From an uncultured Gammaproteobacteria bacterium (GTDB taxonomy: Bacteria; Patescibacteriota; Microgenomatia; UBA10105), in the NCBI GenBank assembly GCA_964412165.1, contig CAYPMW010000005.1, forward strand, positions 2,576-66,575: a stretch of DNA of 64,000 nt. The letters are read 5' to 3'. Shown in pieces: positions 36,001-39,000 of the stretch. How positions within the stretch are numbered: the stretch's first letter is position 1; each line of letters starts with the position of its first letter. The position numbers were made by a program.

Positions 36001-39000
36001 CAGCTAGAATTCCACACTCTTGAGTAATAAATTCCGCATCTCCTAAAGACTTACGGGCAATGAAAAACCCAAGTCCAGACAGGCATGCAGTTTTAAATGT
36101 GTTTTGCTTTGCCAGGCTACACGTTTGCAAAGAACGACGGATATCATATTTAAACCTTTCCATAAAGACAGTGGGTTGGTTTCTACCACATGCTTGTTGG
36201 TACTTATTCTCTAAAACATTACAGGGGTAAAGCGGTTGCGTTTGGGAATAAAAAGTCACGGGTGCGTCTCGAGCAAATTCCATCAGCACTCCGTCGTAGC
36301 ATGATTCACGAGCTTGCGTTAGGGTGTTACAGGCACGAAGTGCTGGATCAAGTTGCGTTACATGATAGAAGCTGGCTATTCCGTGGCCGATTCCGTGAAA
36401 GCAGGTTGACAGTTTCCGGGGTGATTGACTTTTGGCGCACGCTTCGTCTACCTCTTTCATTTTACTCAAATTGCTCGTAAACACCTGGTCTAAAAATCCA
36501 TGGTAACAGCCAAATCCAAACTGTTCACCGCAGTCAACAATGCCTTTGGTGTCATTTACGGTATACATGAGGCTGCCTAAGACGTGGGCCAAATCGTGAA
36601 TGCGAGATGAGCTGAGTCTATCTGTCTTTTCGATATCAGTCAGGTGCTTCCATGCGACTTTAGCGCCTTTTTCACGCATGTAGGTTTCAAGGTAAGTTTG
36701 CTGTTTTTGCTCAGTGAACTGGGCAAACTGTGATGGAGTAGCAGGGATGGTAGTACTCCTTTTCCTGAGTGCTTGGATCCAGGAAATAAAAGTTTGCCAT
36801 CTATTTTGGACCTTGGTTACCCAATTAATTGAGGGAGAAGGCGAGGCGAGAGGTGTATCGTTTTCCTGCACAACGGTAAGGACTGCCCGTTGGTGAGGGT
36901 TGAGGTGATCGTGATAGCGCCACGTGCCTATTTTGCCTGTCTGAAATTTCCATGTTTCTCCGGGAAGGAGTGGTTTTTTGGGGTCAAAATCACGGTATAG
37001 CGTGTGGGTAGGGTGAGGGTTACTTGCTGGCCAGTGAGGTCGCGTATCCTGATTCACAAACGTTACCCAAGTATTTTGATCAATTGTAAGTTCAGTAGGT
37101 ATAAAACCAGTTTCAGTCATCTCCACCACCTGATTTCCATGAGCATAAATATTAAGAGGATGAAAGAGTGAAAGAGTGGTTATTAAAAAGAGAAACTGGA
37201 GCATACCTTAACATTTTCAGTATGGCAGTCAAGTTGTATCTGGTCAAGACTTTTTAAGTTTAAGAAGATGGTGCTGGTTGGGGAGCTGAAGATTCAGCAG
37301 GGGCCGGAGCTGGCGCTGAAGATTCAGCCGGTTGAGTAGTTGTAGTTGATGAAGATGTATCTGTGCTGGTTGAAGTTGAAGGTGGAGTAGAAGTGCTACC
37401 TGATGATCCAGATGAACCTCCATCTGCCATACACCAGCCGCCGCTATCTGACATCCAATGGTATCCAGATGGACATGAACCGCTCGAGCTCGATGAGCTG
37501 GTACCACCAGACGAAGAAGTTGATGAGCTCGACTTGCAACTGCACGTACTCCAATCAAACCAGCCAGAGCCACATCCTGCTGAGGGGTAGCTACAAGAAC
37601 TTGAGCCTGATGAAGGTGTATAAGTGGATGAACCTGAACGGCAACTACAGGTTCCATAGTCATACCAACTGTTTGATCCGCAACCACCAGATGGAGGTGT
37701 ACATGATCCTGATCCTGATGATGAGTAAGAAGACGAGCGGCAGCTGCACGAGCTGTAATCGTACCAACTGTTATAACCGCAACCGCCACTTGGCGGAGTG
37801 CAGTATGTTGAGCCGCCGCTTGAAGAACCTCCGGAAGGATATTGACAACTACATGTCGACGAGTTCCAGGTGCCACTTCCACAACCCCAAGAAGGAGTAC
37901 TACAGCTACCAGGAGTATTAGTTTTACAAGTACATGAACCCCAGTCAAAATATGCATTATACCCAGTACAACCACCTGCGGGATAAGTGCAGGAAGAACT
38001 ACCACTACTACCACCGTAGGTATAAGGATTGTTTCCGGTATAGGTAGCGATACAGCCTCTACCATCCCAGTAGTAACCTGGACCACAGCTACTTTGTGTC
38101 AAGTTGGGGGAATAATAGTTATAACCACCGCCAGTATAATAACTTCCTCCTGGTGGGCTAGCTACACATTTACTGCCATCCCAGTTATATCCACCAGGAC
38201 AGGCTCCATCCCTGCATCTTTTAGTTACTGGATCATAAGGTTGGCTGCCACAATTATAACCTTCTGGGGGAGGAGTACTGCTGGTTGCTGTTCCACTTGG
38301 ATAGGATGTAGAAGTACCGCTTGGTACATATGTTCCTCCATCAGCCATGCACCACCCGGCTTGGCTGTATGATGGTGGCATCCAGTGGAAACCAGTCGGA
38401 CATTGGCCGGGAGAAGTTGGTTGTGGACCAGTTCCGGGTACAGTTCCAGGCAGCGGTGTAGTGGTATACGTCGTAGGCGCAGGTCCATAGTAGTAAGGTG
38501 GTGAATATGACCCAGGACCGCTTGAAGAGGGGTAGACACTATACGTACCTGGGCCTTGATAACCATACGTTCCTGGTGGTACTCCAGGGGTAGAATAATA
38601 CGGCGAATACGGCGTAAAACCAGGTTGTGTGAGAGTCGAAGTTGGTACGAGAGCATCGCCAATTAAAGTATAATTAGAAGGTGAATAATTACCAGAATTA
38701 CCCATGCACCACCCGCCGTTATCATACATCCAATGGTATCCGTTTGGACATACACCGGTACTTTCGGGATTTGGACCTTTTCCATACTCAAGGTTTGTCC
38801 CAGAAGTTTGGGTACTTGAAGTATAGGTGTTATAGGGAGGTGAACCACTAAATGAAAATGGAGAGACATAACTTGGAGAGAATGAATATGACGTTACCGG
38901 AATTGGCGCTCCGGGAGGCGGGCAAGGTGTGTTTGGGGCAAAAGGAGGAGATGGTAAGAAACATGCGGTAGCTGAGTCCCTGACTCCCAAACTGTATGAC

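Follow-up and report, generated by a model that had tools for sequence, protein, structure and literature searches.

Cupredoxin domains with aspartate at the type 1 copper cysteine position and their fusion to a helical CHG module in candidate phyla radiation bacteria

Results

Two paralogs with an N-terminal cupredoxin fold

In this work, we analyzed a 64,000-nucleotide stretch of DNA (the window; positions 2,576 to 66,575 of contig CAYPMW010000005.1, assembly GCA_964412165.1), recorded as an uncultured Gammaproteobacteria bacterium and placed by GTDB in the Patescibacteriota (Microgenomatia; UBA10105), and concentrated on two paralogous genes whose products join a cupredoxin domain lacking the type 1 copper cysteine to an undescribed helical module that we call CHG. 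Paralog A (35831 to 37204, minus strand; limits from the open reading frame [ORF] and from hidden Markov model [HMM] domain boundaries) encodes 457 amino acids comprising a signal peptide, the Cys-less cupredoxin domain, a linker, and one CHG module; an identical protein exists in public data (P0121). Paralog B (43229 to 45778, minus strand) encodes 849 amino acids with a signal peptide, the same type of cupredoxin domain, and two CHG modules. Both proteins open with a hydrophobic, signal-like segment, and in A the −3/−1 rule predicts from the sequence a signal peptide at residues 1 to 21 (37142 to 37204, minus strand), with cleavage after IYA. The cupredoxin-fold domain covers residues 22 to 115 of A (36860 to 37141, minus strand; AlphaFold2, Foldseek, and Pfam PF13473) and residues 27 to 120 of B (45419 to 45700, minus strand; local HMM E value, 4e-35). 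An earlier, sequence-only reading of the window had put these domains at 36859 to 37144 and 45418 to 45688, that is, residues 21 to 115 of A and 31 to 120 of B.

That reading had likened both N termini to plastocyanin or pseudoazurin, and structure prediction recovered the cupredoxin fold. AlphaFold2 models were made on separate domains; with the family alignment as input, the domain of A was modeled with eight strands at a mean predicted local distance difference test (pLDDT) score of 90.5 and a predicted template modeling (pTM) score of 0.83. Compared with the PDB by Foldseek, the model had as its top match a cupredoxin from N. maritimus (5fc9; probability, 1.0; template modeling [TM] score, 0.79), followed by plastocyanins and amicyanins, also at probability 1.0, with TM scores for type 1 proteins ranging from 0.72 to 0.79. 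Sequence profiles agreed with this: a profile of 122 homologs matched amicyanin across the entire domain (E value, 2.4e-10) and plastocyanins down to 1e-7 among PDB sequences, and the local family HMM matched, at an E value of 9e-15, the genuine type 1, amicyanin-like blue copper protein that the window itself encodes outside the cluster (54663 to 55103, plus strand; Pfam PF00127 E value, 6e-16), in which the ligands H...C-x2-H-x2-M are all in place and which served as our comparator. The Pfam Cupredoxin_1 model (PF13473) scored A at 25.2 bits (E value, 1.7e-5) and B at 25.8 bits (E value, 1.1e-5), below its 27-bit gathering threshold; since many homologs bear a precomputed PF13473 or PF00127 label, we read this as a borderline model fit and not as counterevidence to the fold. 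The first domain of either paralog is thus a genuine cupredoxin fold, homologous to amicyanin- and plastocyanin-type proteins.

Type 1 ligand columns and invariant residues

The ligand columns of type 1 copper were mapped by MAFFT alignment, by hmmsearch against PDB amicyanins, and by the local HMM against the window's type 1 protein YHCTPHPFMKATVIVE, and the three approaches were concordant at every aligned column. Set against the type 1 loop Y-H-C-T-P-H-P-F-M and in the numbering of A, the Cys column is occupied by Asp99, His1 corresponds to position 57, His2 to position 102, and Met to position 105. The proposal that aspartate stands where type 1 proteins carry cysteine was therefore upheld, and the homolog search extended it to the whole family: Asp99 is kept in 119 of 120 stand-alone and 41 of 42 fused homologs, and the HDH motif around it in 107 of 107 fused proteins and in 72 of 74 ORFs from genome loci. 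The His2 column is Asn (as in A) or variable, and the Met column is Leu or variable, with Leu the most frequent residue (58 of 120 stand-alone homologs). The residue at the His1 column, directly before WPAS, had been overlooked by the sequence-only reading: it is His in paralog A and Arg in paralog B. In the family it is His in 116 of 120 stand-alone homologs and relaxed in the fused ones, with Arg in 60 and His in 45 of 107 fused proteins and with His, Arg, or Phe in 39, 32, and 6 genome loci, respectively. Other architectures carry Phe, Ser, or Val here, with Phe or Ser in the reverse-order and tandem forms.

The conserved residues lie in two motifs, both on the minus strand. The first is HWPASNPHPTH in A (residues 57 to 67; 37004 to 37036), with His57 in the His1 column by alignment, and RWPASNIHPTH in B (residues 63 to 73; 45560 to 45592), with Arg in that column; its HPTH-bearing stretch, which holds H64 and H67, is a six-residue insertion relative to type 1 proteins that follows strand 4. 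The second is YHDHLNPH in A (residues 97 to 104; 36893 to 36916), where His98 and His100 stand on either side of Asp99, and FHDHLFPH in B (residues 103 to 110; 45449 to 45472). H64, H67, H98, and H100 are each present in 120 of 120 stand-alone homologs and, as a quartet, in 41 to 42 of 42 fused ones (H64 in 41 and H67 in 42). The motifs first reported from the sequence do occur in both genes, but the C-terminal one was slightly garbled (given as W[RY]FHDHL); its actual pattern is WR[YF]HDHL.PH.R[AG]VLTVV. A further conserved element is GFIP at residues 33 to 36 of A, where B has GFEP. Likewise, the extra histidines that had been noted are real in the case of the quartet, but the histidine of the PH pair, H104, is a feature of the fused proteins only (37 of 42 fused versus 0 of 120 stand-alone homologs).

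As judged from these alignments, the ligand-type residues shared across the whole family are H64, H67, H98, D99, and H100, and these four histidines and one aspartate are invariant between bacteria and archaea at overall identities of 25 to 58%. No ligand set at the canonical type 1 position is common to all members, because His1 is relaxed, the His2 and Met columns hold nonligand residues, and H104 is confined to fused proteins. Compared with amicyanin and plastocyanin (PF00127), the family thus keeps the fold, the strand order, the N-x5-H spacing to the His1 column, and the short C-terminal loop length of amicyanin but differs in Cys to Asp, His2 to Asn or variable, Met to Leu or variable, the six-residue HPTH insertion, and the histidines that flank the Cys column. 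A single member was found with Cys in the Asp column, the stand-alone protein P0023 of 160 amino acids (YHCHLRPG); it retains HWPASNPHPTH and lacks the downstream His and Met, and it may represent a revertant or an intermediate form.

Distribution and domain architectures of the family

A search with full-length A returned about 180 proteins from many candidate phyla radiation (CPR) lineages, mostly a cupredoxin domain with the C-terminal module and in some cases with two modules. Searching with the domain only gave 172 small proteins of 119 to 167 amino acids, mostly from DPANN archaea, which carry the source names "cupredoxin domain-containing protein" or "plastocyanin"; the stand-alone clusters number in the hundreds, and a lipobox-like motif is present in 70 of 120 stand-alone homologs. 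Scanning species-representative genomes turned up at least 571 loci that encode a protein related to the fused one, in a few cases CHG alone, and these loci include an Aenigmatarchaeota chromosome, Rubrobacteraceae, and Chloroflexota. Counts from a representative library (30,542, 8,921, and 1,552 at E values of 1e-3, 1e-10, and 1e-30) were left unused as a size of the HDH subfamily, which they overestimate since their best matches are tandem arrays of classical Cys-containing cupredoxins.

The domain orders found were cupredoxin-CHG, cupredoxin-CHG-CHG, cupredoxin-CHG-cupredoxin-CHG, CHG-CHG-cupredoxin-cupredoxin, and cupredoxin-cupredoxin, and HDH-type domains are additionally fused to SLH, CWB2, PG_binding_1, fn3, and PEBP domains. 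These varied orders and fusions, together with the stand-alone forms, argue that the domain is an autonomous module recurrently coupled to CHG, and its signal peptides, lipoboxes, and wall-anchor fusions mark it as an extracellular one. Literature searches found no description of this Cys-less cupredoxin subfamily, which is large, uncharacterized, and often mislabeled "plastocyanin."

The fused proteins have a further characteristic at their N terminus. In A, though not in B, cleavage is predicted at an "A|H" site, so that the mature protein would start with His22 (codon 37142 to 37144). The site is found in 77 of 104 fused homologs versus 1 of 170 stand-alone ones and is missing in 2 of 3 internal domain copies; archaeal and actinobacterial members also have it (homologs concerned: within P0122-P0240, L061, and L069).

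The CHG module

The window holds four CHG modules in three genes. A contains one (residues 185 to 457; 35834 to 36652, minus strand; limits from alignments and AlphaFold2), B contains one at residues 217 to 489 (44312 to 45130, minus strand; hmmsearch domain E value, 1.6e-102) and a second, more divergent one at residues 554 to 843 (43250 to 44119, minus strand; domain E value, 2.3e-32), and the fourth makes up a protein of 391 amino acids that has no cupredoxin domain (48778 to 49953, minus strand; hmmsearch E value, 2.5e-39). The module of A was modeled as 14 helices at a pLDDT of 95.3. Fourteen cysteines are conserved, 12 of them invariant and the remaining two at 90% or more, and the Cys at the end of one helix pairs with the Cys at the start of the next, which implies a module of seven disulfide-stapled hairpins. 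H203, H207, H235, H270, H274, and E309 (A numbering) are invariant, and D304, R341, and E415 are conserved at 90% or more. The polar residues form a row that follows the second Cys of the hairpins (CxHG, CxHGxGHG, CxDGxxME, and CxRxQ), which suggests that the His/Asp/Glu/Arg row lines a binding or catalytic groove. An HxxxH motif lies on the first long helix; in the second CHG module of B (residues 560 to 564; 44087 to 44101, minus strand) it reads HEVTH, the HExxH form of zincins, and in other CHG modules it reads HDLAH, HELTH, or HQEAH.

The module gave zero matches to Pfam and NCBIfam, a profile search of PDB sequences returned only the cupredoxin part, and the fold search gave nothing significant (best E value, 0.07; TM score, <0.45). 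A LanC-like (alpha/alpha)7 barrel was weighed and set aside; LanC-type structures, which the PDB contains, were absent from the top 50 Foldseek matches listed, none of which was significant. Helicobacter cysteine-rich (Sel1-like repeat [SLR]) proteins, in which each hairpin repeat is stapled by one disulfide, resemble CHG in being built of helical hairpins, and the SLR-fold structure 4bwr is among the weak fold matches; CHG differs from them in its invariant polar row after the second Cys and has no significant sequence or fold match to them.

Gene neighborhoods

In the window, paralogs A and B belong to a minus-strand block of genes for secreted proteins that comprises, in order, the gene for the 391-amino-acid CHG-only protein, a small, unannotated but conserved ORF, a gene for a Cys-rich, Tyr/Pro-rich protein of 848 amino acids with YYTP repeats (45869 to 48415, minus strand), B, a gene for a DUF5667 protein of 1,857 amino acids with three DUF5667 domains (37260 to 42833, minus strand), and A. 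The first four of these are syntenic in two other Microgenomates contigs. We surveyed 80 homologous loci, up to 10 kb on each side (74 loci for the CHG-only count). An extra CHG-only ORF lies within 10 kb in 44 of 74 loci and a Cys/Tyr-rich protein in 23 of 80. The window's CHG-only protein has a hydrophobic N-terminal segment, a possible membrane anchor. In Daviesbacteria-like and Parcubacteria contigs (L001, L009, and L010), its orthologs, 42 to 65% identical to it, are encoded at the corresponding place upstream of the fused gene. The 848-amino-acid protein, a conserved member of the cluster in Microgenomates, is encoded directly upstream of B; in L001 and L009, the fused gene likewise has directly upstream a gene whose product is 53% identical to this protein.

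The sequence-only reading had also pointed to an FTR1 permease, DsbD/thioredoxin genes, and a nearby plastocyanin as signs of extracellular copper or iron/redox chemistry, a link that gene order did not support. The FTR1-family permease gene (12927 to 13760, plus strand) lies about 22 kb from A on the opposite strand; FTR1 and the DsbD/thioredoxin genes are about 17 to 22 kb from A in separate transcription units; and the type 1 gene at 54663, about 9 kb from B, is in another transcription unit too, as are the AhpC/TSA and DsbD_N genes (about 17 kb). FTR1 and DsbD_N were each found in 0 of the 80 homologous neighborhoods and a genuine type 1 gene near the fused gene in 1 of 80. Since these genes are distant, belong to other transcription units, and are nearly absent from the surveyed loci, an iron or copper "neighborhood" is unsupported. 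In the single locus with a type 1 gene (L051, 9455 to 9910), this amicyanin-like gene (YYCSPHPYM) lies upstream of the fused cupredoxin-CHG gene, only a few bases away. The window's FTR1 gene is adjoined by genes for a PMT_2 glycosyltransferase and a Crp-family regulator, and no EfeO, EfeB, or P19-type partner stands beside it.

Stand-alone archaeal homologs were examined in five neighborhoods, which had no common partner and only lineage-specific patterns: one of the five lies in an HMA/DsbD_TM cluster, one has a YHS P-type ATPase 2 kb away, and in two Aenigmarchaeota (L003 and L005) tandem genes for cupredoxin-like lipoproteins adjoin a SUF operon. In L003 (7475 to 9327), three lipoprotein genes stand in tandem, encoding a His-less beta-rich protein, a cupredoxin of the HDH type, and a paralog that reads FPTN instead of HPTH and retains HWPAS and YHDHL; L005 (7446 to 8381) has the first two of these only.

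Discussion

In the domain family described here, the Cys, His2, and Met columns are all substituted, and no blue site can form; a non-blue one on the cupredoxin scaffold, as first suggested from the sequence, is a reasonable prediction, but its placement at the canonical position is doubtful in the fused proteins, given their mixture of Arg and His at position 57 and the nonligand residues in the His2 and Met columns. Our preferred interpretation, to which we give an even chance, is that of an extracellular cupredoxin module with a non-blue metal site formed by the invariant histidine quartet, with or without Asp99, which in this genome works with the CHG module. H64, H67, H98, and H100 would hold one metal ion, most likely type-2-like Cu(II) and possibly Zn(II), on the face beside the dead type 1 pocket, and the domain would act as a metal-binding or small-molecule redox module instead of a plastocyanin-type electron carrier. 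Its partner in CPR bacteria would be the His-rich, disulfide-stapled helical repeats of CHG, and the fused forms add H104 and a predicted mature N-terminal His and tolerate the loss of His57.

This proposal draws on the register of the quartet, which appears to coincide with the positions that supply type 2 and type 3 copper ligands in nitrite reductases (NiR; the His at five residues past His1, plus the residue that precedes Cys) and in multicopper oxidases (MCO; the histidines of H-C-H). A profile alignment to domain 1 of the NirK-like oxidase of N. maritimus (9cck; domain E value, 0.018) places H57..H64..H67 and YHDH on AHTIHFHGTH and YHCH, and the HxH (L2) region is matched by the profile at E values of 1e-3 to 3e-3 in a two-domain laccase, in ascorbate oxidase, and in 3g5w; an alignment of single sequences, which is not significant, pairs HDHLNPH with HCHIDWH of laccase. 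H98-D99-H100 and H64 would fit the HxH and His positions of the NiR/MCO type, and the second HxH of MCOs is absent, reading HWP. In plastocyanin, the residue before Cys (Tyr83) is exposed beside the loop that follows strand 4, from which we infer that H64, H67, H98, and H100 cluster on one face. The WPAS..HPTH loop is the weakest part of the AlphaFold2 model of A (mean pLDDT, 68), as would be expected for a loop ordered by its ligand. Engineered C112D azurins bind Cu(II) and provide a precedent for an Asp ligand at the cupredoxin Cys position (PMC8915257).

Several points weigh against this proposal. The family matches the ligand motifs of NiR and MCO weakly (E values, 1e-3 to 2e-2), and the proximity of the four histidines would follow from the sequence register combined with the known placement of Tyr83 and the acidic patch in plastocyanin and of the ligands in NiR and MCO. 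Moreover, the type 2 and type 3 sites of NiR and MCO lie at subunit or domain interfaces and take ligands from a second domain. No metal-related gene was consistently adjacent across the neighborhoods that we inspected, and one fused homolog, P0239, lacks both the WPAS..HPTH and the HDH motifs and nonetheless keeps the architecture.

The alternative that corresponds to the sequence-only reading is a type-2-like or "type-zero"-like copper site at the canonical type 1 position, made of His57, Asp99, a loop histidine (H100 or H104), and a hydrophobic axial residue, as a natural counterpart of C112D/M121L azurin. Asp99 and His57 fall exactly on the Cys and His1 columns, His57 is nearly universal in stand-alone members (116 of 120), where Leu is also common in the Met column (58 of 120), and H104 stands at Cys+5, the loop-His spacing of azurin and MCO, in alignment with the loop His of laccase. 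The C112D and C112D/M121L azurins resemble the family in carrying Asp at the Cys position and in binding Cu(II) in a non-blue site (PMC8915257), and the family is often hydrophobic at the axial Met column. However, these azurins keep both equatorial histidines, whereas the family lacks the second and can dispense with the first in its fused members, where Arg is found in B and in 60 of 107 proteins, and with Phe, Ser, or Val in other architectures. With Asn or variable residues in the His2 column and H104 in 0 of 120 stand-alone homologs, no conserved ligand set remains at this position, and the four additional invariant histidines would go unexplained. We regard such a site as the general solution to be rather unlikely, though it is compatible with the quartet model, since it could exist as a second site in some members. 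The likeness to NiR and MCO could also be taken further, with trimerization or docking of the CHG module completing an intersubunit type 2 or type 3 copper site that reduces nitrite or O2 or dismutates superoxide with electrons from a separate type 1 donor. As in NiR and MCO domains (H-C-H or H-x-H), an HxH encloses the Cys column, and His1 is followed by another His a few residues on; the window encodes a genuine type 1 protein, and L051 has a type 1 gene directly upstream of the fused gene. Yet the family consists of single domains without a type 1 Cys as electron feed and thus without the Cys-His electron bridge, it has only one of the two HxH motifs of MCO domain 1 (HWH reads HWP, with HPTH instead), a type 1 neighbor is present in just 1 of 80 loci, and the NiR and MCO sites are completed by a trimeric or multidomain interface; we hold a catalytic site of this kind to be very unlikely.

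Two further possibilities are a part in iron uptake and the absence of a metal site. By analogy with EfeO and FtrB, the cupredoxin domain could oxidize Fe(II) and the all-alpha domain bind Fe(III) for transfer to the FTR1 permease of the window, which has no adjacent partner gene. In EfeO, whose architecture is analogous, a cupredoxin domain is fused to a metal-binding domain that is all alpha, FtrB (8vuk) matches the model of A at a TM score of 0.70 with 17% identity, and both EfeO (Cup-I) and FtrB (Cup-II) are Cys-less cupredoxins for which a non-blue Asp/His Cu(II) site has been proposed, the FtrB-type ones lacking the His-His-Cys set (PMC11966278). The likeness remains at the level of the fold, however: the family profile misses the FtrB, EfeO, and Bacillus anthracis Cupredoxin_1 structures at E values of ≤1, while it finds amicyanin at 1e-10; the conserved residues differ, and the Mn/Fe-binding Glu cluster of FtrB has no counterpart; CHG resembles imelysin/M75 domains in neither sequence nor fold; and FTR1/EfeU genes are missing from all 80 neighborhoods, the window's own being about 22 kb away on the other strand. 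We consider iron uptake of this kind highly improbable. Alternatively, there may be no metal site at all, and a degenerate cupredoxin could serve as a structural, spacer, or adhesion module whose histidines act in folding, pH sensing, or binding of a nonmetal ligand. Many Cupredoxin_1-type domains are metal free, the cluster encodes large surface proteins that are secreted and rich in Cys, Tyr, and Pro, wall-anchor fusions occur, and P0239 does without the motifs. Against this, four histidines and one aspartate that remain invariant from bacteria to archaea and surround the ancestral metal site in loops and at the ends of strands form a pattern typical of metal ligands and not of structural residues, and we find a metal-free domain unlikely.

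Within the quartet model, the fused proteins deserve separate consideration. In histidine-brace proteins (PmoB CuB, lytic polysaccharide monooxygenases, and CopC), the amine and imidazole of the mature N-terminal His bind copper together with a second His, and the predicted N-terminal His of the fused proteins, which is absent from paralog B, could be a ligand of this type. Taken with H104 and the relaxation at position 57, it suggests a modified or additional site in the fused proteins, possibly shared with the CHG module. A PmoB-like site made from the N-terminal His and H98/H100 within one domain was judged unlikely, as the amicyanin/plastocyanin register would place the N terminus at the end of strand 1 remote from the Cys-column end. 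In its boldest form, the model would make the domain an undescribed natural copper centre, with NiR/MCO-type histidines on a single cupredoxin domain and Asp in place of the bridging Cys, and the fused forms a new extracellular copper enzyme that uses the N-terminal His and CHG; this we offer as a long shot. If true, the family would be a living analog of the proposed single-domain ancestor of NiR and MCO or a natural counterpart of the engineered C112D "type-zero/type-2" azurins, and a possible role of the fused CPR/DPANN enzyme would be to oxidize or cross-link the adjacent Tyr-rich wall protein. The 848-amino-acid protein encoded next to B is a conceivable oxidase substrate.

The family matters beyond the question of its metal. 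Such a large natural set of proteins, with aspartate in the Cys column and an invariant histidine quartet at NiR/MCO-like positions, lends itself to testing how cupredoxin scaffolds host non-blue copper and bears on the possible origin of type 2 and type 3 copper sites. The domain is also a candidate for metal chemistry at the cell surface of ultrasmall symbionts, organisms with very few redox enzymes, being tied in CPR bacteria to the undescribed CHG module and in Microgenomates also to a conserved cluster of surface proteins. An electron-shuttle role is unlikely for these proteins. JGI names label many of them "plastocyanin," and in a metabolic reconstruction of CPR bacteria, "plastocyanins" with a single cupredoxin domain figure as the carriers of electrons to NirK (PMC12931201); since members of the Cys-less family cannot form a blue site, electron-carrier assignments drawn from that label need checking.

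The other proteins of the cluster have features of their own. The 848-amino-acid protein has a hydrophobic, signal-like N-terminal segment followed by four-Cys repeats (C..SC..FC.DP.N...C..FAK) and a long C-terminal run of YYTP/YTTP. Between its gene and that for the CHG-only protein, the small ORF (about 48430 to 48700, minus strand), which is not in the ORF lists cut at 80 or 120 amino acids, encodes a transmembrane segment and then SLKQEYNNPFNRESQYVNPFDTTKSPF; it has phmmer matches in 22 of 80 loci, and counterparts of 77 to 81 amino acids at the same position in L001 and L009 share, by eye, the motif EYxNPF...QYVNPF. The tail of the 1,857-amino-acid DUF5667 protein, encoded between B and A, is rich in Cys, Gly, Ser, and Tyr, with repeats of the type CP.G[YF]HWM....GWCM. 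Finally, several binchicken records of metagenome-assembled genomes titled "uncultured Gammaproteobacteria" or "Methanosarcinales" have contigs that look CPR- or DPANN-like by their protein matches.

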